Assembly (NCBI GenBank): GCA_001780275.1
Contig: MFGB01000020.1
Span: 104,813 to 168,812, forward strand
Length of the DNA stretch: 64,000 nucleotides
Source: Candidatus Falkowbacteria bacterium RIFOXYA2_FULL_47_19
GTDB taxonomy: Bacteria; Patescibacteriota; Patescibacteriia; Patescibacteriales; UBA12075
Direction: 5' to 3'
The notes below the pieces were generated by a model. It was given only the letters and a program-made list of their open reading frames with translations. It did not search any database and was not told the origin of the DNA. Position numbers and translations under genes: made by a program. This document shows, in pieces, positions 34,363 to 50,968 of the stretch. Numbering within the stretch: the first letter of the stretch is position 1; each line of letters begins with the position of its first letter.

Positions 34363-34368
34363 ATATAT

Positions 34369-36532: not shown

Positions 36533-36534
36533 GA

Positions 36535-36885
36535 ATGTTAAAAAAAATAAACCGGCTGACCAAGAAAAAAGAATTTGAAAATGTTCACAAAAAAGGAAGG
36601 CCAAGTTTTGATAAGATAATGGGAGTAAAAACCGTTGGTAATGAATTAAAGTTAAATCGCTTCGGAATAATAGTCAGTATTAAAATTAGCAAGCAGGCAG
36701 TGATCAGAAATAAAGTAAAAAGACGTTTACGGGAAGCGGTGCGGTTGGAAATTGATGATTTAAAACCAGGAAATGATATTATAATAATCACCCTTCCCTT
36801 GATTAAGAGTTGTGAATTAAAAGATATTAGCGATTCATTGAAGAAGCATTTTTACCGGCTTTATCTCTATAAAACAAAAAGATGA
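36535..36885 (+). CDS. rnpA: Ribonuclease P protein component
   Basis: Follows rpm[22 protein letters not shown] pattern, 116 aa, basic. Confidence 0.85.
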
Positions 36886-37133
36886 AAATCTTTTTTTATT
36901 TACCAAGATCAACAGCTATTTGGATCATTAAGATTTATCAAAAAACCCTCTCCCTGGATCATGGTATCTTGAAATTTTTTTATCCTTATGGATTTTGCCG
37001 TTTTCATCCAACATGCTCACAGTACGCCATTGATGTTATAGAAAAATACGGTATCATTAAAGGTGGTTTTAAGGCGGTTTGGCGTGTTTTAAGATGCAAC
37101 CCCTGGAATAAGGGGGGGTATGATCCTGCTTAG
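36882..37133 (+). CDS. yidD: Membrane protein insertion efficiency factor YidD
   Basis: [19 protein letters not shown]...RVLRCNPW. Confidence 0.85.
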
Positions 37134-37151
37134 TAATTAATTATCAATTTC

Positions 37152-37880
37152 ATGTTCCAAATATTTTTTTATCAACCTATTTTTAATCTGGTTATTTTTT
37201 TGTACAATATTGTTCCCGGGCATGATCTTGGGGTGGTAATAATTTTATTAACCATAATTATAAAATTATTATTATTACCCTTATCAAAGAAAGCGTTAAA
37301 ATCACAAAAAGCCCTCCAGGATCTGCAGCCGCATATTGAAGAGATAAAAAAGAAATACAAAGACCGGAAGGATGAAATGGGAAGGGCGATGATGGAGTTA
37401 TATAAAAATAACAAGGTTAATCCCCTATCATCATGCTTACCGCTTTTAATTCAACTGCCCTTTTTATGGGCGGTTTTCCGGGTTTTTAGCAACGGCTTTG
37501 AAAATCTTGATTTAGTTTATTCATTTATCCAAAAGCCGGAAATAATCAACTATATTTCTTTTGGCTTTATAGATCTTCAGAAGCGCAATATTACTTTTGC
37601 CGTATTAGCGGGTTTGGCGCAATTTTGGCAATCAAAAATGATGATGACTAAACGGCCGGCAGTTAAGTCGTCCGGAGCTCGCGACGAGGATATGATGTCG
37701 ATAATGAATAAGCAAATGCTTTATTTTATGCCGTTCATGACTGTTTTTATTGGCATGTCCTTTCCGGGCGGGCTGGCGCTTTATTGGTTGGTTACCACAT
37801 TATTAACTGGTTTACAACAATTATTTATTTTTAGAAAAAGTAAAGATAAAAACATAATTGAAGGCGAGGTGGTTAAGTAG
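37152..37880 (+). CDS. yidC: Membrane protein insertase YidC (short form)
   Basis: Position after rnpA-yidD. LPLLIQLPFLWAVF and GLALYWLVTTLLTGLQQ. Confidence 0.85.
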   Translation: MFQIFFYQPIFNLVIFLYNIVPGHDLGVVIILLTIIIKLLLLPLSKKALKSQKALQDLQPHIEEIKKKYKDRKDEMGRAMMELYKNNKVNPLSSCLPLLIQLPFLWAVFRVFSNGFENLDLVYSFIQKPEIINYISFGFIDLQKRNITFAVLAGLAQFWQSKMMMTKRPAVKSSGARDEDMMSIMNKQMLYFMPFMTVFIGMSFPGGLALYWLVTTLLTGLQQLFIFRKSKDKNIIEGEVVK

Positions 37881-38006
37881 TATTTAGTAATATTATTTTA
37901 TATTTTAATTTTAGTTCGCTTAAATATAAAATACTATATACTAAATACTTTTTATTTTATAAAATAATAATATAATATATTTATTATTAATTAATTTATT
38001 AAAACC

Positions 38007-38840
38007 ATGATCGGTGTATTTGATTCCGGTTTCGGCGGTTTAACGGTTTTAAGCGGATTGGTGAAAGAATTACCGGAATATAATTATATTTATTTAGGTG
38101 ATAACGCTCGCGCGCCCTACGGCAATAAATCGCTTGATGTAATTTATAATTATACCTGTGAAGCGGTAGATTTTTTATTTAAACATAATTGTGAACTTAT
38201 TATCATTGCTTGTAACACCGTTTCCGCGAAAGCTTTAAGGAAAATTCAGCAGGAATATTTACCGAAAAACTACCCAGGTAAAAGAGTTTTAGGGGTAATA
38301 ATACCGGTTGTGGAAACAGTTATAGAAGAGGCGCGGCAAAATTTAGGAAATAAACCGGTTAAAATCGGACTTATCGGTACAAAGACAACTATAAACTCAA
38401 AAGTATACGACGAGGAAATAAAAAAATTATCAAACGAAAATACGCCTGAAATTTTTTCAGTAAGCACACCCCTTTTAGTTCCGTTAATTGAAGAGGGTTG
38501 GATAAAAAAAATCGAGACGAAAATGATTTTAAGGAAATATTTACGCTCACTTAAAAAAGAGAAGATCGATTATTTAATTCTAGGTTGTACGCATTATCCG
38601 TTTTTACAAAAAGATATCCAGGGTATAGTTGGAAAAAAAATAAAAATCATAAGTACCCCGGCCGCCGCCGCCGTAAAATTAAAAGACTATTTATTAAAAC
38701 ACAACGAAATTGACATAAAATTAATAAAAAATAAACAAAGGCGTTATTTTACCACTGATGATCCGGATAAATTCCGTGAGTTCGGAAACAAATTTTTACC
38801 AGAGCTTAATATAATTAAAATAGATAAAGTAGAATTATAA
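38007..38840 (+). CDS. murI: Glutamate racemase
   Basis: IGVFDSGFGGLTVL, IIACNTVSA, LGCTHYP. Confidence 0.9.
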   Translation: MIGVFDSGFGGLTVLSGLVKELPEYNYIYLGDNARAPYGNKSLDVIYNYTCEAVDFLFKHNCELIIIACNTVSAKALRKIQQEYLPKNYPGKRVLGVIIPVVETVIEEARQNLGNKPVKIGLIGTKTTINSKVYDEEIKKLSNENTPEIFSVSTPLLVPLIEEGWIKKIETKMILRKYLRSLKKEKIDYLILGCTHYPFLQKDIQGIVGKKIKIISTPAAAAVKLKDYLLKHNEIDIKLIKNKQRRYFTTDDPDKFREFGNKFLPELNIIKIDKVEL

Positions 38841-38872
38841 AAAAATTACCCGGATCAAGGGTAATTTTTTTA
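38840..38872. terminator. Bidirectional terminator
   Basis: Stem AATTACCC/GGGTAATT flanked by an A-run and a T-run. Confidence 0.75.
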
Positions 38873-38891
38873 TTGTAGCTTTATTGATTTT

Positions 38892-39671
38892 TTAAAAACT
38901 CCTATTCTTCCCAACAATAAGATTGATTTTTTCATTAGCTATAGTAATATTAACCGGCGTGGTGATTTTTATTGAATTATCTATTAAAACAGAGTGTTTA
39001 GGGTTGGTAATTTTTAATTTTTTAAAAGAAAAAACACTTTGATTTGGTTTACCCGTGCTTATCGGTAGGAATTTTTTAGTGTTCTTGGTTTTTATATAAA
39101 GCTCCAAAACACCATCTTTAGCATTTGATTTTATATTATCGGGCAGATCAACATTGATCGGCAGATTAACAACCCCCACCTCCCCTTTTTCCAGGATTTC
39201 AATTGAATAATTCTTGTCGATCTCGATAGTTGTTCCTTCGGTAGTGATCGTAGCTTGGGTTAGAAAATAATAATTATTAATAAGACCGAGGTCAAGTTTT
39301 TGCACACGGCGAGCCGACAAAATATCACACGCCTCTTCATTAATACTGATACCTAAATGATCAGCTATTTCATTATCCTTATTACCTACCGGAATAAAAC
39401 CGATCGGTATGTTTTTATTAACAGAATTCAGCGCCGTCAGCCTGGCTACGGAGTTTATTACTTGGTTTAAAAGACTATTATTTCCCACAGCGATTATCGT
39501 CTTTGCGCCTTTAATTAATTCATTTTCAATTGAATCATAAAGCGAGCTCATAATCCCTAATCGGATTATTTTTCCGTTTAACCCTAAATCAGTGATCCTG
39601 GTTTCTACCCTGGCAATAATACTATTAAACCTTTTTTCGTTAACGTATGAATCGTATATATAGATATGCAT
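38892..39671 (-). CDS. Diacylglycerol/lipid kinase catalytic-domain-like protein (YegS/NAD-kinase fold)
   Basis: N-terminal IYIYDSY...TIIAVGNNSLLNQV resembles the DAGK_cat GGDG region in degenerate form. Low certainty. Confidence 0.35.
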   Translation of the reverse strand: MHIYIYDSYVNEKRFNSIIARVETRITDLGLNGKIIRLGIMSSLYDSIENELIKGAKTIIAVGNNSLLNQVINSVARLTALNSVNKNIPIGFIPVGNKDNEIADHLGISINEEACDILSARRVQKLDLGLINNYYFLTQATITTEGTTIEIDKNYSIEILEKGEVGVVNLPINVDLPDNIKSNAKDGVLELYIKTKNTKKFLPISTGKPNQSVFSFKKLKITNPKHSVLIDNSIKITTPVNITIANEKINLIVGKNRSF

Positions 39672-39706
39672 ATATTTAAAAGGCCCCTAATAACATCCGG
39701 GAAAGA

Positions 39707-40090
39707 TCATTTTTTCTCCGCCGCTGTTTCACCTTTAGACATTCGGCAGGTGCCGTTTAAGATAGCATTTTTTTCAATAGAAATTTTATTAGCCTCAATA
39801 TCGCCGAAAATTTTAGCGGTTGAAGAAATTTCAAGATAGCCATCGACTTTAATATTACCATGAATCTCCCCTCCGATTTTAGCTTCCTTGGCCTCAATTG
39901 TGGCTGTAACTTTGGCTTTATTACCGATCAATAGAAAATTACTGGTTTTTATGCTACCCTCGACCACACCTTCGATAATAATATTTCCCTGTCCATGAAA
40001 ATTACCCTTAACTTTTATTGATGGACCAATAATAGTTTCCGCTTCTTTGTAATTAATTTCGTTGTTTTCTTTATTAAACATATAAGGCAT
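39707..40090 (-). CDS. Bactofilin (polymer-forming cytoskeletal protein)
   Basis: Repetitive beta-helix pattern: IKVKGNFHGQGNIIIEGVVEGSIKT...AKIGGEIHGNIKVDGYLEISSTAKIFGDIEA. Confidence 0.8.
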   Translation of the reverse strand: MPYMFNKENNEINYKEAETIIGPSIKVKGNFHGQGNIIIEGVVEGSIKTSNFLLIGNKAKVTATIEAKEAKIGGEIHGNIKVDGYLEISSTAKIFGDIEANKISIEKNAILNGTCRMSKGETAAEKK

Positions 40091-40311
40091 ACGAATTAAT
40101 AGTGATAAATACTTATAATTCGTAAATAAATTATTTTTATAAAATATTTAAATATAAAATTAGTTTAGATTTATATTTATACTTTAATATAACTCTTAAT
40201 AAAAAACAAGGAATAAATATTGCCAAATTAGATTATTTATTATATCATGAAAACATATTTGTGCGTTGATATTTTAGGGTTATGGATATTTAGGTTTTAG
40301 TGGTTACATTA

Positions 40312-40383
40312 GCTCTTGTAGTTCAATGGATAGAACGGGGGTTTCCTAAACCCTAAATAGAGGTTCGATTCCTCTCAAGAGCA
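40312..40383 (+). tRNA. tRNA-Arg (anticodon CCT)
   Basis: Acceptor GCTCTTG/CAAGAGC, D-arm GTTC-AATGGATA-GAAC, anticodon loop TTCCTAA, T-arm AGAGG-TTCGATT-CCTCT. Confidence 0.9.
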
Positions 40384-40414
40384 CAAATATTTGCTAATAT
40401 TAAATAAAATATTA

Positions 40415-40488
40415 GGGCCATTAGCTCAGTTGGCTAGAGCGCTTCCATGGCATGGAAGAGGTCAAGGGTTCAAGTCCCTTATGGTCCA
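40415..40488 (+). tRNA. tRNA-Ala (anticodon GGC)
   Basis: Acceptor GGGCCAT/ATGGTCC with the G3:U70 identity pair. Anticodon arm CTTCC-ATGGCAT-GGAAG. T-loop TTCAAGT. Confidence 0.9.
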
Positions 40489-40603
40489 CTAATAAAATTT
40501 AACCCTTTCTTTTTATAGAAAGCTATAGAAAATATTTTAATTAAATATTTATTGTGATTATTTTAAAGTAGGTAAAACCACTATTGGCTAGAGGTGAATA
40601 ATA

Positions 40604-40765
40604 ATGAATCATTTTAAAACCGCTCTCCTTGATCCAGAAATAATTCAAAAATATAAAAACAAACCATTCCATCAAGCTATTTTACATGCTCTTTCAGTAT
40701 ATGTTGAGCAAGGAAATAATATTTCAGATTTACCATGGTTTATTTTTAAAAAATCACAAAAATAA
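40604..40765 (+). CDS. Small ORF (53 aa) with its own RBS and terminator
   Basis: GAGGTG sits 7 nt upstream of the ATG. MNHFKTALLDPEIIQKYKNKPFHQAILHALSVYVEQGNNISDLPWFIFKKSQK*. Terminator 23 nt downstream. Below the ORF-track cutoff. Confidence 0.45.
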   Translation: MNHFKTALLDPEIIQKYKNKPFHQAILHALSVYVEQGNNISDLPWFIFKKSQK

Positions 40766-40787
40766 TTTAATTAAAATTAAAAACACA

Positions 40788-40809
40788 AAACCCTGTTCAG
40801 GGTTTTTTA
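40788..40809 (+). terminator. Rho-independent terminator after the small ORF
   Basis: Stem AACCCT/AGGGTT, loop GTTC, then TTTTTT. Confidence 0.7.
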
Positions 40810-40810
40810 T

Positions 40811-40824
40811 GTTCCACGTAGAAC
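40811..40824. repeat. 14-bp palindromic site GTTCCACGTAGAAC (copy 1 of 3)
   Basis: Half-sites GTTCYAC/GTAGAAC. Related copies at 41294-41307 and 41320-41333. Confidence 0.6.
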
Positions 40825-40896
40825 TGTACAAGGTTTATTTCTAAATCAATTTTTTAAAACCTTTTAAAATTAAAGGGTTTTTAATTGTTTAAAAAA

Positions 40897-41140
40897 TCCA
40901 CCGGCGAATCCGGTCGTCTACGGTTACATGTTGCGGACGAAGTCAGATATGCTCATTATAAGAATAAACGGATTTGAAATATATCGATAGTGGGTTTACT
41001 TGTATAATGGTTGTTGTTTGTTATTCCCGCCTGCCTGCCAACAGGCGGGGGGTTGGCGGGATAAGCTATGTGCTATATGTGGTTGTATGTACGGATCAAT
41101 CCCGGATCCCCGATATACGCCCCGGTCGGATTCGGTGATG
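40897..41140. ncRNA. Candidate structured RNA/DNA element (~240 nt, GC-rich island in AT-rich DNA), class unknown
   Basis: Long-range closing helix CGAATCCG (40905-12) / CGGATTCG (41127-34), extended by CAC/GTG. Internal hairpin CCCGCC..GCCTG-CCAA-CAGGC..GGCGGG (41026-41060). No ORF of 60 aa or more on either strand. Confidence 0.35.
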
Positions 41141-41293
41141 ACAAATTAACTTTTTAAAAAAAGGGCGAAGTCTGTTAATTTATAACCCCACTGACTAAGT
41201 CGGTGTGTAGTTTAATTAAATTACTAATCAATAAATAATGGCTATTTATTTTTAAAGATTGTCCTAAAAACTATTTATTAATTATATACAAAA

Positions 41294-41307
41294 GTTCCAC
41301 AAAGAAC
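41294..41307. repeat. 14-bp site GTTCCACAAAGAAC (copy 2 of 3)
   Basis: Direct reading. Confidence 0.5.
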
Positions 41308-41319
41308 AATTATCAAAAA

Positions 41320-41333
41320 GTTCTGCGTAGAAC
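41320..41333. repeat. 14-bp palindromic site GTTCTGCGTAGAAC (copy 3 of 3)
   Basis: Direct reading. 26 bp start-to-start from copy 2. Confidence 0.6.
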
Positions 41334-41732
41334 AATTTAAATATAACATTTTTATCTAATATTCAAATAACGTTAAAATTATTAAAATTTAAATTAAATT
41401 AAGGCTGACTTAAAAATTGTACAATAAATATTAATACAATTTAATTATTTGTAGGCAAGGCATTATTAATAGAATAAATAGATATTATTTAAAATTTATT
41501 TTTAAAATATCATAAAAAATCAAAAAATAATGACAGTGGAAAAGTCTACAAAAATGTGGACTATTAATTTATATTTATACTAATATTAAATAAAAAATAA
41601 GCAGGGGATAAGATGAGGATAAGCTATTATAATATAAAAATTAAACTTATTTAAATAAAATTGATTATTTTAATATTAGCAAAAAGATAAAAATACTAAA
41701 AATATAAATAACCCAATAATAGAAAAAATATT

Positions 41733-41761
41733 TTGACAGTCTTATTTTTTTATAATATAAT
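41733..41761 (+). promoter_or_regulatory. Consensus sigma70-type promoter TTGACA-N17-TATAAT
   Basis: TTGACA at 41733-38 and TATAAT at 41756-61. Predicts a ~125-nt 5' UTR for the 41893 gene. Confidence 0.6.
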
Positions 41762-41792
41762 ATTAATGTAAGCATTATCAAATAATTTTCCG

Positions 41793-41885
41793 CACCTTTT
41801 TAGCAGTTCGTATCCCACTCCGAAAGCATCCCCTAATACTGTTTCACGGCGGTGTCCCGCCAAACAGTATTAAAGGTGTGGGATA
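41793..41885 (+). promoter_or_regulatory. Nested-hairpin 5' leader (riboswitch-like candidate) ending 7 nt before the start codon
   Basis: Outer stem TATCCCAC (41811-18) / GTGGGATA (41878-85). Inner 10-bp stem AATACTGTTT (41835-44) / AAACAGTATT (41862-71) capped by GGCGG-TGTC-CCGCC. Alternative pairing CACCTTT (41793-99) / AAAGGTG (41872-78). Confidence 0.45.
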
Positions 41886-42463: not shown

Positions 42464-43420
42464 ATGTATGACCTAATTATAATCGGCGCCGGTCCAGCCG
42501 GCATTACGGCCGGCATATATGCCGTCCGGCGGGAGATGAAAGTTTTAATTATAGGGACCCAGACCGGCGGTCAGGTTGTTTGGGCTTCGGAAATAGAGAA
42601 TTACCCGGGATTTAAAAATATCCAGAGTTACGATTTTATCTCAAAATTGCACGAGCAGATAACCGGCTTAGGCGTAGAGATAAAAAATTTTGAAATTAAA
42701 AGAATTGAAAAAACAACGGACGGCGTCTTTAAACTTTTTACTGAAAAAGAAGAGTTTGAAGCGAAGACCGTGATCATAGCCATGGGGCTGCAGCCGCGTC
42801 GGCTGGCGATACCCGGCGAAGAAAAATTCGGCGGTCGGGGAATTTCTTATTGCGCTAATTGCGACGGCCCTTTTTATAAAAATAAAACAGTGGCTGTGGT
42901 CGGCGGTGGAAATTCCGCTTTAGACGCGGCGGAAGTTCTTTCTAAGATCGCGAGTAAAGTTTATCTTATCCACCATAATCAGAGCCTTAAAGCTTTTGAA
43001 GGACTTGTAGATGAGGTAAAAAGCCGTGAAAATATCGAGATGATGCTGGATAGGGAGGTAAAAGAAATATCCGGCAATGATAAATTAGAGAAAATCAAAA
43101 TTTTAAATTGTCGGACTAAAGAGGAAACAGATCTAATAGTCGACGGCCTTTTTATAGAAATCGGACGAATAGCGCACACCGACCTGGTTAAAGATCTTGT
43201 TAAACGGGATGAACGCGATCAGGTTATAGTTGATGAAAAATGCGCGACTAGCGAACCGGGGATTTTTGCCGCCGGAGACGTTACCCAGGTTCCCTACAAG
43301 CAAATCACGATCGCAACCGGCCAGGCGACGATCGCGGCTTTAGCGGCTTACCAATATTTACAGGTAAAGAGCGGAAAAAAGATCGGATTGGTCATGGATC
43401 GAAGTTTGCCTAAAAAATAA
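42464..43420 (+). CDS. trxB: Thioredoxin-disulfide reductase
   Basis: IIIGAGPAGITAGIY FAD motif, redox-active CANCDG, GGGNSALD NADPH motif. Confidence 0.9.
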   Translation: MYDLIIIGAGPAGITAGIYAVRREMKVLIIGTQTGGQVVWASEIENYPGFKNIQSYDFISKLHEQITGLGVEIKNFEIKRIEKTTDGVFKLFTEKEEFEAKTVIIAMGLQPRRLAIPGEEKFGGRGISYCANCDGPFYKNKTVAVVGGGNSALDAAEVLSKIASKVYLIHHNQSLKAFEGLVDEVKSRENIEMMLDREVKEISGNDKLEKIKILNCRTKEETDLIVDGLFIEIGRIAHTDLVKDLVKRDERDQVIVDEKCATSEPGIFAAGDVTQVPYKQITIATGQATIAALAAYQYLQVKSGKKIGLVMDRSLPKK

Positions 43421-43527: not shown

Positions 43528-44070
43528 TTAATCGTTTTCACTTCTTAATTTATCCAGACGCTCTTTTATTTTTTTATTTTCTTCTTCCAGTATTTTTTCT
43601 TTGATGTCTCGCGCCATTCCTAAGCGTAAAGTATAAAAATCGTCGAGGGTTTTATCAAGCTCCATGGAACGTTCTTTGTATTTCTGTTTTGACGATTTTA
43701 ATTCTTCGGTATGGCGGCGCAACTCCAGGTTTTTATTTTCTATGTCGCTATTTAATTTTTTAAGATCCGCTGATTTTCGCATCAAGTCGTATATTAATCG
43801 GTTGTTGATCTTTAAAACCGTTACAACGAAAATAGCGCCAAAGAAAAAAATAACGCTAACCAATAATTCGTTCGTCGTATGGACGGGGGAGTAGATCAGA
43901 CGGGCAAAGAACGCCAGGTAACCGAAAATAAACAAGCAGATCAGAGCCAGTAGGACCCAGTAATGGTTGGCGGCGGTATTGTTTTTTACCGAGTTATTCA
44001 ACTTATAACAAAGCCAGGTTGAATAAAAAAGAATAATCGCGCCGGCGGACACAAGAATCATGTTAAACAT
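43528..44070 (-). CDS. Hypothetical membrane protein with a C-terminal coiled coil
   Basis: 180 aa. About 4 N-terminal TM helices, then a charged heptad-like region. Confidence 0.45.
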   Translation of the reverse strand: MFNMILVSAGAIILFYSTWLCYKLNNSVKNNTAANHYWVLLALICLFIFGYLAFFARLIYSPVHTTNELLVSVIFFFGAIFVVTVLKINNRLIYDLMRKSADLKKLNSDIENKNLELRRHTEELKSSKQKYKERSMELDKTLDDFYTLRLGMARDIKEKILEEENKKIKERLDKLRSEND

Positions 44071-44104
44071 AGAACATTTATTAAATTATAATTTTTTATA
44101 AAAA

Positions 44105-44698
44105 TTATTTTATAATAAAAGAGTCTGAATAAATTATTTCCGGCTCGAAAAGAAGTTGGGCGTTATCGTGCAAATTAAAACTAAACTGGAACGCGAGCCG
44201 GTATTCGCCGCTTTCAATACGCCGGACGACAGACGCTTCGCTAAAACCACCTTCTTTGAATGGGCAAATTTTCTGATCCCAGGCTGTGCTTATTTTTAAA
44301 CCAGTCCCGAGCGCCATAGGCGGAACCTGCTCATAAAGAGCGATGTAGCAACTATCGCCAAGCCGTTCATCGGTTAATTGAAAACCTTCGCGTCCGCCAT
44401 AACCGAATTTTTTCCACTCGCTTTTTTCTAAATATTCTATTTCCCAAACCCTGTCGCCGCCCGGATAATAAAAAATATTTTCTTCCAGGCCGTTTTTAAT
44501 GATGATATTAATTGTTTCGCCGGAGCTGTAAATTTTTTTATCAGTGGAGATGCTTATTTCCGCGGCCGGCGGCGCGGGCAGTAGCGGCGGCGTCGGCGGA
44601 GTGATCTTATTTTGCCGAAAAAACAAAAAAATAAAAATAAAAATCAATAGCGCGATGATAATAATAACAGACAATTTAAATTTTTTATTTTTTGCCAT
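44105..44698 (-). CDS. Hypothetical membrane-anchored/secreted protein with a Pro-rich linker
   Basis: 197 aa. N-terminal TM helix, then PPTPPLLPAPPAAE. Confidence 0.45.
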   Translation of the reverse strand: MAKNKKFKLSVIIIIALLIFIFIFLFFRQNKITPPTPPLLPAPPAAEISISTDKKIYSSGETINIIIKNGLEENIFYYPGGDRVWEIEYLEKSEWKKFGYGGREGFQLTDERLGDSCYIALYEQVPPMALGTGLKISTAWDQKICPFKEGGFSEASVVRRIESGEYRLAFQFSFNLHDNAQLLFEPEIIYSDSFIIK

Positions 44699-44834
44699 AT
44701 TTATTAAATTAAGAATTATTATGTAAAATCAATTTTACGTCTTCTTAAGTCAGTCGGCGGGATTGAGCCGCTTATTGCGGCGTTATATGGTGTAAAAAAT
44801 ACGTATATTTCGTACAACAGCTTCGGGATATCTG

Positions 44835-44899
44835 AAATTCAGTTGGCGTAATCTGCTAAAATTGTGCGAACGCACTAGCAGATTATGGAAACTGAATTT
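44835..44899. repeat. Long imperfect hairpin in the spacer downstream of the 44928 gene
   Basis: AAATTCAGTT/AACTGAATTT (44835-44 / 44890-99), ATCTGCTA/TAGCAGAT (44851-58 / 44876-83), GTGCG-AA-CGCAC (44864-75). Confidence 0.7.
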
Positions 44900-44927
44900 G
44901 GGAAAGCGATCGTCAAAAATAAAATAT

Positions 44928-45476
44928 TTAATCTTTGATCTCGTATTCCCAGCCAGCTCGCCATTTTTTTGCTTTACGCCAATCTTCCTCGATAGCCGTC
45001 TCCCAGGTTTTGTCTCTAAGAACAACATCTAAAGCTAGTTGCGGTGCTTGATGGGCGACGATGGCAACGCGTTTTCCGTTATAATTAATTTTTAAATATT
45101 CACAAAACTCTCTAATACGATTTTCAACATCTTTATAGCTTTCACCGTTTGGAAAAGGAGTATCAACATAGTCATTCATTTTGTTTTTAAAAACTTTCGC
45201 TTCTTTTTGCGTATAGTCGCCATAATTTACTTCTCTGAGTCTTTTGTCGCGAATTATTTCATATTTGTCGCCAAAGGCAAGTTCGGCGGAATTAATGGCG
45301 CGTTGTAAATCGGAACAAAAGACGATGTCATATGCCTGCTTCGCAACTAGCTGTCCAAGGTTTTTGGCCTGCTGTTTTCCTATCTCGGATAATTCACCCG
45401 GTGCCCAACCAGTTGCTAGGTCATGTTCGTTGTCGGTAGTGGTGCCGTGGACAAAGTATGTGATTTTAACACTCAT
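44928..45476 (-). CDS. Histidine phosphatase (phosphoglycerate-mutase-like) family protein
   Basis: MSVKITYFVHGTTTDN (RHG-like motif) and later AIVAHQAPQ. I chose the ATG at 45476. The track ORF starts at a TTG at 45491. Confidence 0.6.
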   Translation of the reverse strand: MSVKITYFVHGTTTDNEHDLATGWAPGELSEIGKQQAKNLGQLVAKQAYDIVFCSDLQRAINSAELAFGDKYEIIRDKRLREVNYGDYTQKEAKVFKNKMNDYVDTPFPNGESYKDVENRIREFCEYLKINYNGKRVAIVAHQAPQLALDVVLRDKTWETAIEEDWRKAKKWRAGWEYEIKD

Positions 45477-45660
45477 AAGATTAGAGATCAAATATTTTAT
45501 TAAGTTCGCTGACCAGATACGCCGTGTTGTATGTAGTAAATTTTTTATCTTTTTGCAGTAGTATTAAATCTTGTCTACTAGTAGAGAAATTTGATTTTTT
45601 GTTTTAAAAAAATAAAAGAGGGGATGTGAAGGGGATGAATTCTTTTTTCAAAACTCCTTA

Positions 45661-46167
45661 TTATTTATTTTTTATCCATTTCTTCGTTTCCTGATAGCTT
45701 ATTTTACACCGAACTTTAAAGTCATCATCTGAAATATGCAAAGCAATATCGTTATTGTAAGTGTTTAAAAAAATATCGTGATCATTTATTATCTTATCTA
45801 TAATTTTTAAAGATTCCAAATAATCTTTTGACTTATAAAGACGTGTCAAAAATTCCTTGCTTAAGTCAATGCTAATTATAAAATAGCGGTACTCATTTAA
45901 AGTCAACTGCTTTTTAAATTCTTCCCATTCTCTGTCTACGCTTAGGTCACAAATAAAAGAAACTCCATTTTCCATAATTTCTTTCAATCTTTCATTACGC
46001 CTTTTAACGTGTTCGTTAGAATCAAATATTCCTAAATCTTCTGTAACTTCGCTACGAATAGCGTCATTGTTAAAAACTGGTAGATTCAGTTTTGTGCTTA
46101 AATAATTTGTAATGGGTGTTTTGGAGCTACCAACAGCTCCTGCAAAAGTAATACAAATTTTATTCAT
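45661..46167 (-). CDS. P-loop kinase/NTPase-like protein (AAA_33/zeta-toxin-like fold)
   Basis: Walker A FAGAVGSSKT near the N-terminus, 168 aa. Confidence 0.45.
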   Translation of the reverse strand: MNKICITFAGAVGSSKTPITNYLSTKLNLPVFNNDAIRSEVTEDLGIFDSNEHVKRRNERLKEIMENGVSFICDLSVDREWEEFKKQLTLNEYRYFIISIDLSKEFLTRLYKSKDYLESLKIIDKIINDHDIFLNTYNNDIALHISDDDFKVRCKISYQETKKWIKNK

Positions 46168-46291
46168 AAATTTAAATTTAATTTGGAGCGAAGCGACTTC
46201 AACTTTCCCCTTTAAATTATTTAAAAAACAAAACTTTCGGTCGTGACTAAATCGTCAAACCTTGAATTCAAGAAAGATAAAAATTTATTTC

Positions 46292-46391
46292 GTCTAACGG
46301 CTTCGGGATAAGCGAAGTCCTGAGAAGTGAAGTGAATCGGGATTTGGGAAAATGCCGAGCCGAGGCATTTTCCGGTTATCACTTGTTAAGC
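46292..46391. repeat. Structured spacer segment bounded by integron-core-like heptamers GTCTAAC ... GTTAAGC
   Basis: GTCTAAC (46292-98) fits RYYYAAC and GTTAAGC (46385-91) fits GTTRRRY. The enclosed imperfect hairpin pairs AAGTGA..GGAAAATGCC with GGCATTTTCC..TCACTT (46330-84) and has a bulge. A side hairpin (46299-320) makes it non-canonical for attC. Confidence 0.3.
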
Positions 46392-46470
46392 GAGGGCTCG
46401 GCTGAATTCTTTATTATTGAGAAGAGTCTGACGTAAGCGCAGCGTCCGTATGAGTTTTTGAAAATAACAT

Positions 46471-46944
46471 TTATAATTTTTGGCTATTTAAATACTCAAA
46501 GAATTCTTTACCCCAAGCCAGAATAATTCCATTCTCTTTAAGAACTTTTAGTGATTTATTTTTGAACTTCAAATAATCATTAAGAAATTTTGCGGCAATG
46601 TCTGGCCAAATATCTCCAATAACACAATCATACTTTTTATCTTCGTCGATATTAAAAAAATCACCAATTATTAATTCGCCAAAAATTTGGCCGGACATTG
46701 CTTTCATTTTTTCTATAACCTCAGGATATTTTTCTACAGTCGTGACAGATTTTACTTTTGGATTTTTTAGCAGGTACTCGGGAAGTAAGCCCAGGCCATA
46801 TCCTGCAACCAAAACATCGCCACATGCACCATCGGCCAATTCTTGCTGAAGCTCTTTTTCTTGCGGAGTGTCCCACATCCAAAGATAGTCATCCAGATAC
46901 ATAAATCTGTGTCCTTTGTGCTGCAAAATTTCTATTTGGGCCAT
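46471..46944 (-). CDS. Class I SAM-dependent methyltransferase / spermidine-synthase-like fold protein
   Basis: VLVAGYGLGLL (GxGxG-like), VEKYPEVI, VIGDIW. Confidence 0.45.
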   Translation of the reverse strand: MAQIEILQHKGHRFMYLDDYLWMWDTPQEKELQQELADGACGDVLVAGYGLGLLPEYLLKNPKVKSVTTVEKYPEVIEKMKAMSGQIFGELIIGDFFNIDEDKKYDCVIGDIWPDIAAKFLNDYLKFKNKSLKVLKENGIILAWGKEFFEYLNSQKL

Positions 46945-47125
46945 AAAATAAATGTTATCTTAAAAATTTCGTATCTTTTAGTTGTGTCTGAAGTTTCTGT
47001 TCCTCTTCTTTTAAAAATTAATAATGAAAAAAGGAATAGAAATTTGGGTCGGAATCCGCCTTGGGCGGATTGAGCCGCTAATCGCGATGTTAGATGATGT
47101 TGGTGTGCGGTCGTGAATATTGCAA

Positions 47126-47506
47126 TTATTTGTTATCTAGATAATCAATTACTTTATCAAGTATCGTATTGCACTTATCAATTTCTTCCCGAGTCGTGAA
47201 TTTACCTTCGCTAAAGCCAAATTTAAATTTTAAAAACTCTTTTACGTCTTTTTTTAATGACTCATCACGGATCATGCCGTCCATTAAAGCACTTTCAAGA
47301 TCGTACTTTAAACCAGAGATGTAATTACCTTGGCACTTGAACATATTGTAACGTGGGTCGTTAGAAGGGATAATATTTCTTACATCTTCTTCTGGTAAAT
47401 CATCAAGGTGTTCATCTCGGAGCCAATGGAAACGCTCCTGATACCATTTTTTATCAAAAAGAGTTTCTTTTTCTTTATTTTTTAAATTTGGCTGTTCGTG
47501 TTTCAT
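47126..47506 (-). CDS. Hypothetical protein (126 aa)
   Basis: Clean ORF in the cassette-like array. No family recognised. Confidence 0.4.
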   Translation of the reverse strand: MKHEQPNLKNKEKETLFDKKWYQERFHWLRDEHLDDLPEEDVRNIIPSNDPRYNMFKCQGNYISGLKYDLESALMDGMIRDESLKKDVKEFLKFKFGFSEGKFTTREEIDKCNTILDKVIDYLDNK

Positions 47507-47675
47507 ACAAAGGAATTTGTTTTTATAGTATTAGCACACCAATTTCACATAACATCGGGCTTTAGGGAAGTTTTTTGCGTAGCAAAAATTTGGGAGAGTG
47601 AAGTGCAACAAGCAAACTATTTAAGCCCCGCTAAATAAGGTAAGGACGAAGTCCGAAAGCGCAACGTCACCTGAG

Positions 47676-48203
47676 TTATTTTTCAGCCCCGTAGAATTCA
47701 TCGAAATACTTCTTTATACCTTCAACAAAAGGTGGTGTGTATATGTCAGGATTTTCAATAATATCTTTTTTTAATTCATCTGCATTAATCCATTTAATTT
47801 TTGAAATTTCTCTTGCATCGGGATTGATACCATCATCAGATTTACCAACAAAAACACAATGCCAAGCTTTATCAAATGTGTCAAAAAACGGATATGTAAA
47901 TAATCTTTTTACATTTGTTGAAATTCCAATTTCCTCTTGCATTTCTTTTTGAATACAATCTTCATAAGATTCATTAGCCACAGTTCCACTAACCGAATAT
48001 GTAAAAAGATTTGGGTACCATTTTTTTGTTGGCGCCCTATGTTGCAAGAGAATTTCGTTTTTTGAATTAAAAAGTATTAAATGAGATGAACGATGAATAT
48101 ATTTCCCTGTATAAAAATCATCTCTTGGCCTTAAGCCAATTTGATTATCGTTTTTATCAACTTCGATATTTTGCTCTACCATTTTTAATTTAAATCCTGA
48201 CAT
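47676..48203 (-). CDS. NUDIX hydrolase (isopentenyl-diphosphate-isomerase-like subfamily)
   Basis: Nudix box GTVANESYEDCIQKEMQEEIGI. N-terminal VDKNDNQIG...HRSSHLILFN resembles IDI-type Nudix proteins. Confidence 0.7.
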   Translation of the reverse strand: MSGFKLKMVEQNIEVDKNDNQIGLRPRDDFYTGKYIHRSSHLILFNSKNEILLQHRAPTKKWYPNLFTYSVSGTVANESYEDCIQKEMQEEIGISTNVKRLFTYPFFDTFDKAWHCVFVGKSDDGINPDAREISKIKWINADELKKDIIENPDIYTPPFVEGIKKYFDEFYGAEK

Positions 48204-48229
48204 ATATATAAATTTATTTCACTGAACGA

Positions 48230-48316
48230 CCTGTCCGCCTCTGGCGGAAGGGTTTGCCCGCGGCTGGAGAGCATTATACGAGCACCGACCCGCCATAGGC
48301 GGGGAGGGCGGAGCGA
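48230..48316. repeat. GC-rich repeat R1a (~87 nt), about 90% identical to 48980-49064
   Basis: CCTGTCCGCCTCTGGCGGAAGGG(T/C)TTGCCCGCGGC...GAGCACCGACCCG(C/T)CAT(A/G)GGCGGGGAGGGCGGAGCGA. Confidence 0.85.
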
Positions 48317-48376
48317 TGGCGGAGGAGTAATAAAAAATTTCGCTCCTTATTTATAATTTTGGCAATTTGTTAATAT

Positions 48377-48781
48377 TTAAGAAGAAACATTAATTTTTCC
48401 ACCCTCTATATTATCTATTGTGTTTTCTAATTTTGATTCAGCTTCATCCAGACCACCGAGAATATCGCTAATTTTTTCATTCTCGAAATTAAAGACTGAT
48501 TTTTTATCAGAAATTCCACGAACTGCATTACCCAATTCTTTTCCCCACCCCTGTTCTTCTTTTGGCACAAAATCATCAATGTTGTCTTCGATTTCTTTCC
48601 AGGTTTTATCTTTAATACTTTTACCATGCCTTTTTATTAACATGTTAAAACCCGATTTCATAACTTTAACGTGATCTAAAGTTTTTTTTGCCTCCTTTAA
48701 TGTTTTTTGCTCTTCGGCTATTTTTCGAGAAAAATTTAGCTCTTTTTCGTTTTTTGGTTGAAAAGTTGTTTCTTTTTCCAT
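48377..48781 (-). CDS. Hypothetical protein (134 aa, charged)
   Basis: Clean ORF. Bracketed by an 18/19 inverted repeat (48353-71 / 48801-19). Confidence 0.4.
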   Translation of the reverse strand: MEKETTFQPKNEKELNFSRKIAEEQKTLKEAKKTLDHVKVMKSGFNMLIKRHGKSIKDKTWKEIEDNIDDFVPKEEQGWGKELGNAVRGISDKKSVFNFENEKISDILGGLDEAESKLENTIDNIEGGKINVSS

Positions 48782-48854
48782 AGATTTGTTATTTGTGACA
48801 AATAAATTGCCAAAATTATTAATTAATATAGTGATTTTTTATTATTGCGTATAA

Positions 48855-49120
48855 CGGGCCGCGGGATTTGCGATGCGCGTGGCTCCGCCTCGCAGGCGGG
48901 GACAGGCGTTTCGCATATCCCGAGTAGGGCGTGTTCGCTCCGGCTGCCCGCAGGGCAGGCGAGCGGCAGCGGCGAACAGCCTGTCCGCCTCTGGCGGAAG
49001 GGCTTGCCCGCGGCCGGAGCATTATGCGAGCACCGACCCGTCATGGGCGGGGAGGGCGGAGCGATTTTTTCCGAACCGTGGTAATATCTGAGGTTTTGTC
49101 ACCTCCTTATTGAATTTATT
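48855..49120 (+). ncRNA. Candidate multi-hairpin structured RNA (~265 nt, very GC-rich), contains repeat R1b (48980-49064); class unknown, strand tentative
   Basis: Long-range GGCCGCGGG (48857-65) / CCCGCGGCC (49007-15). Hairpins: GGGATTTGCG/CGCATATCCC (48863-921) with inner CCGCC-TCGCA-GGCGG; GTTCGC..CTGCCC-GCA-GGGCAG..GCGAAC (48933-77); CCGCC-TCT-GGCGG (48985-97); CCCGTC-ATG-GGCGGG (49037-51). A terminator-like GAGGT-TTTGTC-ACCTC plus a T-rich tail (49090-49120) occurs on the plus strand. Confidence 0.35.
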
Positions 49121-49154
49121 TGGTAATAAAATTTGGGTGAATCCGATTAATTAA

Positions 49155-49607
49155 TTATTTTATTATGTTCTCAAGGTTTCCGTTGATAATAATCGGTTTT
49201 AAATCTTCTAACTCGTCAACATAATGCATTCTTTCACTTCGTTCAGGAATTGGATTATAAAGGTATATTGTTTTCTCATGTCCGTAAGCAAAGCCCATTT
49301 CCATTAAAGTGCTACCACCAATGTAATTATCTATACCTTTCTTTTCCATATTCAGAACAAGTATAGCATCAGAATGTTTTATATAATTCCAATATCTTTT
49401 TATCATATCAACAGGCTCAGCGTTCCTAAGTCCAATATCCCCACCTTCTTCCTTGGCTTTGAGATAATCTTCAAATTTTAGTTTGCCGTCAATCATCTTT
49501 TGAGTAAAAAGTGGGATATTAACCGTCCATCCTTTATCCTCCAATTCTTTTTTAAGCTCGATTATCTTCGGGGAGAAATCGACGCTCGAACATATTGTTA
49601 TAGTCAT
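49155..49607 (-). CDS. Nucleoside 2-deoxyribosyltransferase-like (NDT/DUF4406-like) protein
   Basis: MTITICSSVDF...ILVLNMEKKGIDNYIGGSTLMEMGFAYGHEKTIYLYNPIPE resembles the NDT-like Rossmann family. I chose the start at 49607. The longer track ORF (49682) adds an implausible leader that overlaps the upstream gene. Confidence 0.45.
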   Translation of the reverse strand: MTITICSSVDFSPKIIELKKELEDKGWTVNIPLFTQKMIDGKLKFEDYLKAKEEGGDIGLRNAEPVDMIKRYWNYIKHSDAILVLNMEKKGIDNYIGGSTLMEMGFAYGHEKTIYLYNPIPERSERMHYVDELEDLKPIIINGNLENIIK

Positions 49608-49666
49608 ACTAAATAAAAAAATAATAATCTGGCGTAGCCAGTTATGCCGTGATAGGCGAAGTAATA

Positions 49667-49993
49667 TTAACATTTTCCACAAGTGCCCAGACCAGAATTG
49701 TTAGCTTTTTGGCACACCCATCTGAGTATTCCAGAATATCCTTTTTCGGGCTCTACTTCATCTAAAGAGGCAATTGATTTATCTATTGGCAACCCGCTAT
49801 TTTCGCAGATTCCTTTAAATGGATAACGTTTTTTTGCAGAAATCCGTCCTTTGTTTCTGTGTTTGGTCGCAATTACACCAATTCTCTTTGCAACTGCGAC
49901 AGGATTATGCGCAGAAACAATCGCCTCTTTAATTTGCCCCTGAATGCATTCCGTGAGCCCCTTATCGTGTTGGTCAAGTTTTAATGCTGTCAT
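49667..49993 (-). CDS. Hypothetical protein (108 aa, C-terminal Cys cluster)
   Basis: Clean ORF. Its 5' UTR and its stop-codon region form a 17/18-nt inverted repeat (49663-80 / 49994-50010). Confidence 0.4.
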   Translation of the reverse strand: MTALKLDQHDKGLTECIQGQIKEAIVSAHNPVAVAKRIGVIATKHRNKGRISAKKRYPFKGICENSGLPIDKSIASLDEVEPEKGYSGILRWVCQKANNSGLGTCGKC

Positions 49994-50260
49994 GTGGAAA
50001 TGTTAATATTATTTAGCCTATCAAGTTATATGTGAACTTATTGCGGATTGTTTAAAAATTAGTTAAAATATGTTTATTAACTTCTTAGCATAAGGCTTTA
50101 TGCCGGGAAATATTTATATCCGAGCAAGGATTTCGTGTAGAAATTTTTCAGGGAAATGCGGATTCGTAATTTTAGCGGGAAAACCAGTAGGGCCTATTTG
50201 TATTATAACAGGAATTTATAAGTGATTACAATGCTAAAACCCTCGATGTTCAACTGAATT

Positions 50261-50968
50261 ATGCTTAATCTTAAAGAAGAAGAAAACCTGTTCACACTAG
50301 GATATAGATTCGTTGGCGGACTAGACGAAGCCGGACGCGGGCCTTTGGCCGGACCGGTCGTGGCCGCCTGCGTTATTTGTGAACGCGATCATAAAATCAA
50401 CATGGAGACCCTTAAAGACGTAAAAGACTCGAAGAAGCTCACGGAAAAGAAAAGGGAAAAGCTCTTTGGACTTATCCAGGAGAATGTTTTTGAGGTCGGG
50501 GTCGGGGTTTGCGACCAGGATACCATAGACAGAATAAATATATTCCAGGCTTCTCTCTTGGCCATGAAAAAAGCGATCGGCGCGCTTAAAAATAAGCCGG
50601 AATTCATAATGCTTGACGGAAAATTCCCGATTCCAAATATCAGTCTAAAACAAAGAGCGATCATCGGCGGCGATAACCTCGTCTTTTCCATAGCCGCGGC
50701 TTCAATTATCGCAAAAGTAACCCGCGATCGGATCATGCGCACCCACCATGAAGAATATCCGGAATACGGCTTTGATAAGCATAAGGGCTATGGGACAAAA
50801 TTCCACATAGAACAACTGGCAAAACACGGACCCTGCCGTCTCCACCGGAAAAGCTTTGAGCCAATAAGGAAATTCTATAATAATACGGCCAATATTTTAA
50901 AATCCCCCTTAATCCTTGTTAATAATAAAAAAATTAACTATAATAATAATGTAATCAAGGAGAATTAA
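50261..50968 (+). CDS. rnhB: Ribonuclease HII
   Basis: GLDEAGRGPLAGPVVAACV, DSKKLTEKKRE, HKGYGT. Confidence 0.9.
   Translation: MLNLKEEENLFTLGYRFVGGLDEAGRGPLAGPVVAACVICERDHKINMETLKDVKDSKKLTEKKREKLFGLIQENVFEVGVGVCDQDTIDRINIFQASLLAMKKAIGALKNKPEFIMLDGKFPIPNISLKQRAIIGGDNLVFSIAAASIIAKVTRDRIMRTHHEEYPEYGFDKHKGYGTKFHIEQLAKHGPCRLHRKSFEPIRKFYNNTANILKSPLILVNNKKINYNNNVIKEN

Follow-up and report, generated by a model that had tools for sequence, protein, structure and literature searches.

A GC-rich island of 221 nt, lying within an array of small genes in a 64,000-nt stretch of the genome of Candidatus Falkowbacteria bacterium RIFOXYA2_FULL_47_19 (hereafter the window), was observed to be a real, conserved and structured non-coding element, which matches nothing in the libraries that were searched. 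The interpretation that we favor, with moderate confidence, is that this island is a DNA-level junction or recombination module of an integron-like cassette array, similar to arrays of attC sites and to clusters of attC sites lacking an integrase (CALINs), in a bacterium of the Candidate Phyla Radiation (CPR). The preliminary description of this DNA had proposed either a structured non-coding RNA or a structured DNA site. The structured, non-coding part of that proposal stands, and of its two options a DNA site is now favored over an RNA gene, because the element is confined to the junctions between genes, has exact ends at AAC and is known from filled and empty sites, and because its hairpins are dispensable, no excess of promoter- or terminator-like sites accompanies it and attC-like sites adjoin it. 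All positions given here are in the numbering of the 64-kb window, whose plus strand is antisense to the genes of the array, and L-numbers denote the related loci that were compared. The element and its parts are as follows.

48849-48855, plus strand: GTATAAC box (consensus RYATAAC) forming the left boundary; its reading on the gene strand, GTTATAC, resembles an attC core site.
48856-49076, plus strand: full-length GC-rich element, 221 nt, from GGGCCGCGGG to TTTTTTCCGAAC, with its ends read from the table of flanks.
48857-48865, plus strand: 5' strand of the closing helix P1, GGCCGCGGG, whose partner is CCCGCGGCC at 49007-49015; seen in the DNA centroid fold.
48863-48921, plus strand: hairpin A, GGGATTTGCGA ... 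TCGCATATCCC, with the apex CTCCGCC-TCGCA-GGCGGGG.
48933-48977, plus strand: hairpin B, GTTCGC ... GCGAAC, with the apex CTGCCC-GCA-GGGCAG; an optional module.
48978-49004, plus strand: hairpin C, AGCCT-G-TCCGCC-TCT-GGCGGA-A-GGGCT; an optional module.
49007-49076, plus strand: 3' core domain, CCCGCGGCC .. GCGAGCAC .. apex .. GGCGGAGCGAT .. CCGAAC, with the apex CCCGTC-ATG-GGCGGG at 49037-49051.

The G+C content is 68-73% in 100-nt windows over 48850-49050 and about 21-40% in the flanks, the surrounding DNA being ~30% G+C, and the GC skew across the element is positive. When the segment 48850-49125 was folded as RNA, the plus strand gave -139.3 kcal/mol (z = -4.24 in comparison to dinucleotide shuffles) and the minus strand -117.9 kcal/mol (z = -3.38). 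With DNA parameters, the segment 48847-49076 gave -71.8 kcal/mol (z = -4.43) and -58.0 kcal/mol (z = -1.79) for the plus and minus strands, respectively. The GC-rich island in AT-rich DNA that was described earlier is thus borne out by its composition and by folds that exceed those of shuffled sequences, and the long-range helix P1 and the hairpins were found as they had been written there.

Related arrays were located by means of exact-word scans and by a protein-anchored walk on a recurrent kinase-like gene. A profile based upon eight copies (nhmmer) matches the full-length element at 48844-49076 with an E value of 1.9e-50, and in all it detected the two window copies plus 14 other distinct copies, whole or fragmentary, that are spread over five distinct Falkowbacteria-type loci, viz. 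L022/L043 (RIFOXYC2_FULL_46_15), L046/L011 (JAZDLN010000026), L023, L025, and L028, where L025 and L028 overlap at 100% identity so that some of the 14 copies are counted twice. In the other Parcubacteria loci examined, no copy was detected with nhmmer. All of the copies are intergenic and present in a single orientation, antisense to the flanking small genes, which are on the same strand. Their density is illustrated by L025, with four copies in 2.5 kb and one gene between each pair, L022, with three copies in 3.4 kb, and L046, with four copies.

The second component of these arrays is a family of junction sites that occur without the GC-rich element, well-formed examples being present at the gene junctions of the Parcubacteria locus L041. 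In the orientation of the element, such a site consists of an RYATAAC box, a spacer of 4-6 nt, an L'' arm of 9-12 nt (often with one extra base), the segment AAGTTTT-hairpin-AAAATTTGGGTG-hairpin, a complementary L' arm, 1-4 nt, and GTTATGY. The L'' and L' arms differ among the sites yet remain complementary in seven or more different pairs of arms, often with one extra G. Examples include GGGATAAAAG / CTTTTATCCC, GTTGTAAGCG / CGCTTACAAC, and CGAATATGCG / CGCATATCCG, and, with an extra base, CGAT[G]AAGCG / CGCTTATCG, CGAC[G]AAGCG / CGCTTGTCG, and GCGTGT[C]ATCTG / CAGATACACGC. These sites fold as three-way junctions (z from -3.5 to -4.9), and those of the AT-type are about 90-150 nt in length.

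The boundaries of the GC-rich element are defined in relation to these sites. On its left, 10 of the 11 flanks of full copies read AAC↓GGCCGCGGG, within an RYATAAC box (the arrow marks the boundary), and in the window copy an additional G follows the AAC. On its right, the sequence is always GGCGGAGCGATTTTGC(G/T)GAAC↓ (TTTTTTCCGAAC↓ in the window), which is then followed by at least seven different downstream sequences. The element is therefore bounded by AAC↓ on either side, its own end being ...GC(G/T)GAAC, and an alignment of its flanks (alignment A2) places it as an insert between the AAC box and the spacer and L'' arm of the junction sites. An empty site, AGCTAAC-GTTTAC-CGATGAAGCG-AAGTTTT, can be compared directly with a filled one, AGATAAC-(element)-GTGCAC-CGATGAAGCG-AAGTTTT. 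Element-free junction sites are found in L041, which contains no GC islands, and as site Ja of L046; the single contig of L046 carries an empty site (2990-3170) as well as a filled site (1490-1870). At one site with common flanks, L025 has a minimal form of the element and L028 a long form. Additionally, the flanks of the long window copy match site J0 of L041 both on the left (AAATAAATTGCCAAAATTATTAAT...TTATTATTGCGTATAA[C/T]) and on the right (GAAC..ATATCTGA[A/G]GTTTT...AAAATTTGGGT).

The minimal element together with its flanks forms an attC-like hairpin, AGATAAC-GGCCGC-GGGATATGCG...CGCATATCCC-GCGGCC-GTTCCGC, in which hairpin and boxes span 85 nt. It is followed by the conserved core of about 45-60 nt, which ends in GCGGAAC, the complement of GTTCCGC. 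By analogy with integrons, this layout would be that of a tiny cassette, devoid of any open reading frame (ORF), placed ahead of an ordinary site. On the minus strand of L043 (1530-1600), a decayed remnant of the GC-rich element, CATATCCCGAACAGGGGAGGGTCTTGCCCGCCGCCGGAGAGTATTGTTGTGCGATG, is present beside the stop codon of the kinase gene, so that old copies of the element seem to erode in place.

The structure of the element was examined over an alignment of its copies (alignment A1). When the window fold was counted over this alignment, 81.8% of the cells were paired, as compared with about 40% for slid partners. Both sides are changed in 12 pairs, a number that was reached in two of 500 shuffles, and the covariation score was reached in none of 500. 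Conserved structure and covariation in relatives, upon which the earlier proposal depended, are thus present. The 3' strand of P1 is invariant in all 10 aligned copies, with a C-A mismatch in the L022a and L046a copies. Helices 1 and 2 of hairpin A are 98.9 and 90.8% paired, respectively, and for hairpin B the values are 84% (helix 3) and 81% (helix 5), G-U replacements being numerous. The apexes of hairpins B and D vary in sequence by lineage with their self-complementarity being kept. The most conserved part is the 3' core, in which the invariant columns are clustered (GGGCTTGCCCGCGGCC..GCGAGCAC..GGCGGAGCGAT..GAAC), and its apex (helix 11) covaries among the copies, the pairs being CCCGCC/GGCGGG, CGGCAC/GTGCCG, and CCGAGC/GCGAGG. 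The minimum-energy fold of the 3' domain in the window was rejected as the structure of the family, its outer stems (helices 7-8) being just 14-30% paired across the copies.

The copies are also modular in their make-up. Hairpin A is absent from two copies, one of which is the short copy of the window; its 5' arm (GGGAT[A/T]TGCG) shares homology with the L'' arm that short junction sites have, such as GGGATAAGCG at 46302-46311. The minimal copy L025:446-589 lacks hairpin B, and hairpin C behaves as a clean 20-nt indel, which is 100% paired in the five copies that have one. The short window copy and the box that precedes it are:

48221-48227, plus strand: ACTGAAC box before the short copy, whose context, TTATTTC-N-AAC, is shared with the other junction boxes.
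48228-48317, plus strand: short copy, consisting of hairpin C and the 3' core, without hairpins A and B and the terminal TTTTGCGGAAC.

The profile matches the short copy at 48239-48317 (E = 7.8e-09), and in direct comparison the 3' ~92 nt of the element recur at 48224-48317, where 48224-48269 shows 91% identity to 48974-49019 and 48269-48317 shows 94% identity to 49017-49065, the two matching blocks being separated by a 2-nt indel. This copy had been described earlier as truncated and about 90% identical. It is a genuine copy of 91-94% identity, and it does not represent a random fragment, as it starts directly after an ACTGAAC box of its own. The two window copies differ by seven substitutions, all of which are transitions, one example being the change at the apex of hairpin D (CCCGCC-ATA-GGCGGG versus CCCGTC-ATG-GGCGGG); the earlier remark that the substitutions are mostly transitions thus holds for seven out of seven. 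In the window, the hairpin C 20-mer is present at two places, in comparison to zero occurrences expected from 100 shuffles. A tandem duplication of a 750-bp unit was considered as the source of the two copies and rejected, the homology between them being limited to the element and a tail of about 45 nt.

In view of its strong folds, the possibility that the island encodes or forms part of a structured RNA has to be considered. Such an RNA could be a small RNA transcribed from the plus strand and antisense to the genes, or a cis element of a polycistronic minus-strand mRNA, acting as a block to 3'-5' exonucleases, a processing site or an insulator between cassettes. We regard this explanation as unlikely. 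The strong conserved hairpins and the changes on the plus strand that tolerate G-U pairing are consistent with it, as are the conserved unpaired stretches of the 3' core (GCGAGCAC and GGCGGAGCGAT), which could bind a protein or make tertiary contacts. Because the NUDIX gene starts just 20 nt beyond the short copy, read-through of the element on the minus strand is also probable, and hairpins of the repetitive extragenic palindromic (REP) type stabilize upstream mRNA in Escherichia coli. However, the gene-sense minus strand folds worse, no conserved promoter- or terminator-like site was found by scanning to bracket the element on the plus strand, and whole domains can be absent (hairpin A from two copies, and B and C from others). 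Together with the lack of conservation in the outer stems of the 3' domain, this would be unusual in a single functional RNA. As an argument against a leader of the riboswitch type, the downstream genes, viz. the 134-aa ORFan, NUDIX, methyltransferase, and kinase genes, are unrelated to each other.

The searches for RNA families likewise speak against a structured RNA. At gathering scores, Rfam identified only tRNAs in the window and nothing beyond tRNAs in 12 related loci; at relaxed E values, the matches to the island region were at chance level (E > 0.4, far below gathering scores), and L025 and L022, which between them contain seven copies, gave no match at E ≤ 1. The element thus matches no known RNA family above chance level. 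In L011, a tRNA-like sequence (GGAGCCA...GAGGGGTTCAATTCCCCTTGGCTCCA) was noted at 6300-6380, about 190 nt from a copy of the GC-rich element; it was rejected as a tRNA, being called by neither Rfam nor ARAGORN.

In the preliminary description, the change in hairpin D had been seen to preserve pairing, as U-G, only with the plus strand as the RNA, and better pairing of the plus strand is supported by the folds given above, by the consensus structure and by the type of mismatches. The RNAalifold consensus for the plus strand has an energy of -20.2 kcal/mol with 42 pairs, and that for the minus strand -11.1 kcal/mol with 33 pairs and with C-A mismatches. Within the supported helices, 46 G-T mismatch cells were counted versus 13 A-C cells, a count that is somewhat biased by the structure having been taken from the plus-strand fold. 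This strand bias is predicted alike by a plus-strand RNA and by a bottom-strand DNA hairpin, and it separates neither from the other. In integron terms, the plus strand of the window, which is antisense to the genes, would be the bottom strand, and the bottom strands of attC sites in mobile integrons are likewise rich in G and exceed the top strands in stability (PMC5371416).

The position of the array relative to the origin of replication bears upon the same question. The dnaN-dnaA genes are located at 33223-35721 on the minus strand with AT-rich DNA to their right, and the region 33223-41800 is probably the replication-origin region. The cassette-like array begins about 8 kb to the right of dnaN-dnaA, and its genes are oriented head-on to replication. 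Because dnaA and dnaN lie at 33-35.7 kb with AT-rich DNA to the right, the plus strand is probably the template of the lagging strand at the element. The DNA to the right of these genes is in places very AT-rich, with 10-20% G+C at 40.05-40.25 kb and at 41.2-41.8 kb, and two tRNA genes are found at 40312-40488.

A further explanation for the island, viz. that it is the decayed remains of a GC-rich protein gene acquired by horizontal transfer or simply a chance GC-rich island, is very improbable and in our view effectively refuted. Both strands have open frames of 60-79 aa, and the ORF of 79 aa is annotated by the National Center for Biotechnology Information (NCBI) as a hypothetical protein over the island (A2303_07160). 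However, in a search of 5.8 billion proteins with this one reading frame, the 79-aa ORF matched only itself. The 2-nt indel between the window copies breaks any common reading frame, and the copies in alignment A1 differ by whole-hairpin indels and by indels other than multiples of three. The earlier view that the 60-79-aa ORFs are artefacts is upheld by these results as regards their non-coding nature. The identical ends at many junctions, together with fold z values of -4.2 to -7.7, likewise argue against a gene remnant or a chance island. Plasmid and phage collections contained no similarity to the element, no exact match to the 20-mer of hairpin C was found in viral contigs, and literature searches on the hairpin sequence and on attC sites or integrons in Patescibacteria, CPR, Parcubacteria, or Falkowbacteria returned nothing relevant.

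Within the window, sites related to the junction sites of L041 were recognized at the following positions.

49077-49154, plus strand: degenerate 5' half of an AT-type junction site, comprising a spacer, ATATCTG, AGGTTTT, the GAGGT/ACCTC stem, and AAATTTGGG at 49129-49137.
47040-47095, plus strand: 3' half of a junction site, with AAATTTGGG, the hairpin CCGCC-TTG-GGCGG, and GCCGCTAATCGCGAT-GTTAGAT.
46292-46391, plus strand: short attC-like junction site of 100 nt, without GC hairpins, GTCTAAC-GGCTTC-GGGATAAGCG ... GGTTATCAC-TT-GTTAAGC.
44812-44835, plus strand: junction box and arm GTACAAC-AGCTTC-GGGATATCTG, recognized as a sequence motif.

The half-site that directly follows the long copy is homologous to site J0 of L041 (GAACACCGATATCTGAAGTTTT...AAAAATTTGGGT), and further homologous sites are present in L025 and L046. 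This half-site includes the GAGGT stem with a T-rich tail that was described earlier; the GGAGCGA/TCGCTCC stem is found after the short copy. Both stems exist; the terminator role is not upheld, as the terminator scan called neither GAGGT/ACCTC (49090-49105) nor GGAGCGA/TCGCTCC, and GAGGT/ACCTC, which was rejected as a terminator, is part of the adjacent junction site, where it corresponds to the A(A/G)GTTTT segment that is conserved in relatives. The half-site at 47040-47095 is homologous to L022 2094-2040 and to a motif at L011 6454-6472, and the short junction site contains a match to the motif AACGGCTTCGGGATAAGCGA at 46296-46315. For the box at 44812-44835, a possible partner, CAGATACGCC-GT-GTTGTAT, is located at about 45515-45535, beyond the histidine phosphatase (His_Phos) gene in the intergenic region 45492-45660, with a weak match of seven out of 10 positions. 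In the Parcubacteria locus L044, the 600-nt gap between atpG and atpD of the ATP synthase operon (8563-9163) contains two tiny ORFs (31 and 55 aa) and neither a GC island nor a junction motif.

The gene array in which the copies reside, and the inverted frames found within it, are as follows.

43528-49993, minus strand: array of about 11 small accessory genes, between trxB (42464-43420, plus strand) and RNase HII (50261-50968, plus strand).
48328-48371, no strand assigned: left arm of a 44-nt inverted frame (I1, 80% complementary) around the gene for the 134-aa ORFan.
48801-48844, no strand assigned: right arm of the inverted frame I1, which runs into the GTATAAC box.
49643-49675 and 49998-50030, no strand assigned: 33-nt inverted repeat I4 (85% complementary), which encloses a 108-aa gene (49667-49993, minus strand) and reads GTGATAGGCGAAG ... 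TTTAGCCTATCAA-GTTATAT.

The array genes include NUDIX, histidine phosphatase, P-loop kinase-like and methyltransferase-like genes as well as ORFans. The rule of one small co-oriented gene per repeat largely holds, the exceptions being junctions without a recognizable site and genes that are situated between L'' and L'. The 134-aa gene between the two window copies (48377-48781, minus strand) has no homologs in our searches and is hence an ORFan. The frame that surrounds it was also observed to bracket an unrelated 116-aa ORF in L041 (6146-6200 and 6550-6620), the comparison of the two proteins by BLASTP giving an E value of 0.22. What they have in common is a frame of about 50-70 nt, AAATTGCCAAAATTATTAAT..TAAGGAG..TTTTTATTA..GCGYATAAC, which extends out to the AAC/GTT boxes. 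Likewise, the motif pair GTGATAGGCGAAG / AGCCTATCG is also present in non-coding junction elements of L022 and L046.

Comparisons of whole arrays indicate how variable their gene content is. The L043 and L046 arrays have a common core flank (aminotransferase, asparaginase, and glycosyltransferases) with different small genes upstream, and in L050 (9226-12065, Parcubacteria) kinase-like and Bro-N genes are inserted between scpA and scpB. This kinase/Bro-N insertion suggests that the small genes move as units, and the frames, the ORFan and the variable small genes fit an accessory-gene island that is built of framed units.

Some of the hairpins have relatives well outside these arrays, which raises the question of a selfish origin. 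The 20-mer of hairpin C, GTCCGCCTCTGGCGGAAGGG (window positions 48983-49002 and 48233-48252), is found exactly in 21 genome contigs (loci L002-L021), the hosts of which include Omnitrophota, Saccharibacteria, Parcubacteria, Delta- and Gammaproteobacteria, Chloroflexi, and Bacteroidota. Some 15 of the 21 contigs have it in the nested context CCYCCCC-(6-10 nt)-GTCCGCC-TCT-GGCGGA-AGGGGRGG. The 20-mer matched no Rfam family, and it may be a unit similar to REPs or to miniature inverted-repeat transposable elements (MITEs) that is common to several phyla, and for at least some of the hairpins a selfish origin of the REP type, or of the type of palindrome-associated transposable elements (PATEs), is plausible.

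Taken further, this leads to the explanation that the whole element is a selfish cluster, i.e., a mosaic of GC-rich REP-like hairpins that was inserted 3' of AAC, resembles PATEs or the bacterial interspersed mosaic elements (BIMEs) made up of REPs, and is mobilized as single-stranded DNA by a Y1 transposase of the HUH type, such as a REP-associated tyrosine transposase (RAYT) or the enzyme of IS200/IS605 insertion sequences, with no role in moving cassettes. This explanation we consider improbable for the element as a whole. It accounts for the gain and loss of hairpins B and C as units and for the distribution of the hairpin C 20-mer over 21 contigs from at least eight phyla, where it is multi-copy in some metagenome-assembled genomes and mostly lies within larger palindromes. 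A RAYT-like Y1 transposase flanked by GC-rich hairpins is indeed present in the Parcubacteria locus L048 (6180-7040, 181 aa, RAYT/IS200-like, with the HUH motif MPNHIHVL, on a contig of 39% G+C), where the hairpins GCGGCGGAGTCCC-TTTTA-GGAGACTCCGCCGC, which differ from those of the element, are found on both of its sides and the neighborhood is shared with the kinase-like gene. Furthermore, the ends of IS200/IS605 elements have subterminal hairpins, and insertion takes place 3' of a short target that is echoed at the right end. The element, which lacks terminal inverted repeats, has a hairpin at or near either end, is inserted 3' of AAC and itself ends in AAC, resembles such elements, and a single orientation is expected for a strand-specific transposition of single strands.

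However, the copies are not dispersed, there being only two in the 64 kb, both within the array, and in the relatives they are present only at array junctions. The Y1/HUH motif is absent from the window and from all element-bearing loci searched, and the homology of the 5' arm of hairpin A to the L'' arm suggests that the element was derived from the site rather than being an invader. The likeness to REPs and BIMEs thus lies in GC-rich, extragenic, imperfect palindromes that form mosaics with a variable number of units and probably fold on one strand, whereas REPs usually occur in both orientations and the present element is undispersed, has a single orientation and a fixed position at the junctions, and is accompanied by no RAYT in the loci that bear it. 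In the case of the IS200/IS605-derived PATEs, the lack of terminal inverted repeats, the hairpins near both ends and the AAC↓ target repeated at the right end are shared, but here it is the boundary box of a cassette junction that serves as target, and the 5' hairpin is homologous to the site. No autonomous partner with the same ends was seen in the loci that were fetched, where no search was aimed at one.

Cassette recombination sites are known to harbor foreign modules whose position and orientation are constant, namely IS1111-attC elements and group IIC-attC introns, which are 1-2 kb in length and encode a transposase or a reverse transcriptase. The present element is alike in its fixed position and orientation, but it is only 145-250 nt long and contains no ORF.

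The interpretation as a DNA-level junction module draws upon the likeness to integrons. The attC sites of integrons are imperfect hairpins that are recombined as a folded single (bottom) strand, in which only three bases at the cleavage site are conserved; further features are extrahelical bases, a central spacer that stays unpaired and a terminal structure that varies and can be branched, and their length is 57-141 nt (PMC5371416). Arrays of attC sites without an integrase are designated CALINs (PMC4889954). In the present arrays, the repeats likewise separate small, co-oriented ORFs that stand singly and are in many cases ORFans, with no integrase nearby, as in CALINs. The sites are imperfect palindromes with ...AAC and GTT... 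boxes, whose arms are conserved in pairing and not in sequence, many of them with one unpaired extra base, and their terminal part varies and is in some cases branched, in a manner comparable to the Vibrio cholerae repeats (VCRs). The antisense strand is G-rich and folds better, again as in attC sites (PMC5371416). Boxes of the form RYYYAAC ... GTTRRRY are present in the sites of the relatives, in the window site at 46292-46391 (GTCTAAC...GTTAAGC) and in the minimal element (AGATAAC...GTTCCGC). The differences are that the element is 221 nt long and stacked on a second site, that the inverted frames of the ORFs are 45-70 nt, and that the host genome is tiny, of a kind reported to be without integrons (PMC4889954).

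The element is an optional module that is joined exactly 3' of the AAC in the RYATAAC box with which an attC-like site opens. In the mechanism that we consider likeliest, it would work as DNA. Its G-rich plus strand, when single-stranded, would fold into hairpins, and these could serve as the substrate for site-specific single-strand recombination at AA↓C boxes. The element would thereby act as an ORF-less cassette, or as a second site of the GC type, stacked on an ordinary junction site, with hairpins B and C as palindromic units added to its variable part.

A number of observations weigh against this interpretation. No tyrosine recombinase (PF00589) was found, by scan or in the gene table, among the window ORFs of 250-450 aa, and no integrase is listed in the gene tables of the relatives' array loci (L029 and L039-L052). 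The element is 221 nt in length, or about 330 nt with the AT half-site, and the range for the family is 145-250 nt. In the window, P1 is followed by GGAG instead of GTT, and the downstream site has no recognizable L'-GTT half. The attC-like sites were recognized by eye and by regular expressions and not by the model of IntegronFinder; the strict site pattern matches nothing inside the window array, and its two matches elsewhere in the window are of low complexity and chance-like. The junction sites of the window itself are partly degenerate. The extra base also differs in its placement, as in canonical attC sites the bottom strand carries the extrahelical base on the opposite arm, and in many of the AT-type sites the extra G or C is situated in the plus-strand arm beside the AAC box; hairpin A, of the GC type, has no extra base.

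Additionally, genes are found inside sites, between L'' and L', in the case of the 108-aa gene of the window and of the kinase-like gene (L025 1632-2385 and L041 8333-9188), the arms of the latter, GTTGTAAGCG and CGCTTACAAC, being 738 nt apart. This arrangement is not predicted by the recombination of folded hairpins. Over 48204-49154, the sequence is 99.8-100% identical in 10 contigs of this strain that come from different samples, the match covering the full 951 nt in nine of them and 866 nt in the other, and this near-identity gives no sign of ongoing rearrangement. Lastly, the covariation is no proof of selection, as perfect palindromes can arise mechanically.

As regards its wider meaning, we put forward tentatively, as a possible but doubtful proposal, that Patescibacteria with genomes of ~1 Mb (Falkowbacteria and Parcubacteria) carry an undescribed cassette platform, in which every accessory ORF is framed by folded single-strand AAC/GTT sites and the GC-rich modules recombine independently. 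The recombinase would in this case be a distant IntI, a Xer-like or a HUH enzyme that is encoded elsewhere in the genome. Apart from this proposal, the element explains spurious "hypothetical proteins" of CPR bacteria such as the 79-aa ORF A2303_07160, and it marks accessory-gene islands in metagenome-assembled genomes. If the integron-like interpretation is correct, a composite type of site, with a GC-rich hairpin module stacked on an AT-rich three-way junction, would be added to those described, structured junction sites of this kind would be going unannotated by standard tools and databases, and attC-like sites would be present in a genome size class that is reported to be without integrons (PMC4889954). 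Gene capture of the integron type would then extend to ultra-small symbiotic bacteria, and these arrays would show genome-reduced CPR bacteria stocking and exchanging NUDIX, phosphatase, kinase, and toxin-like genes as well as ORFans.

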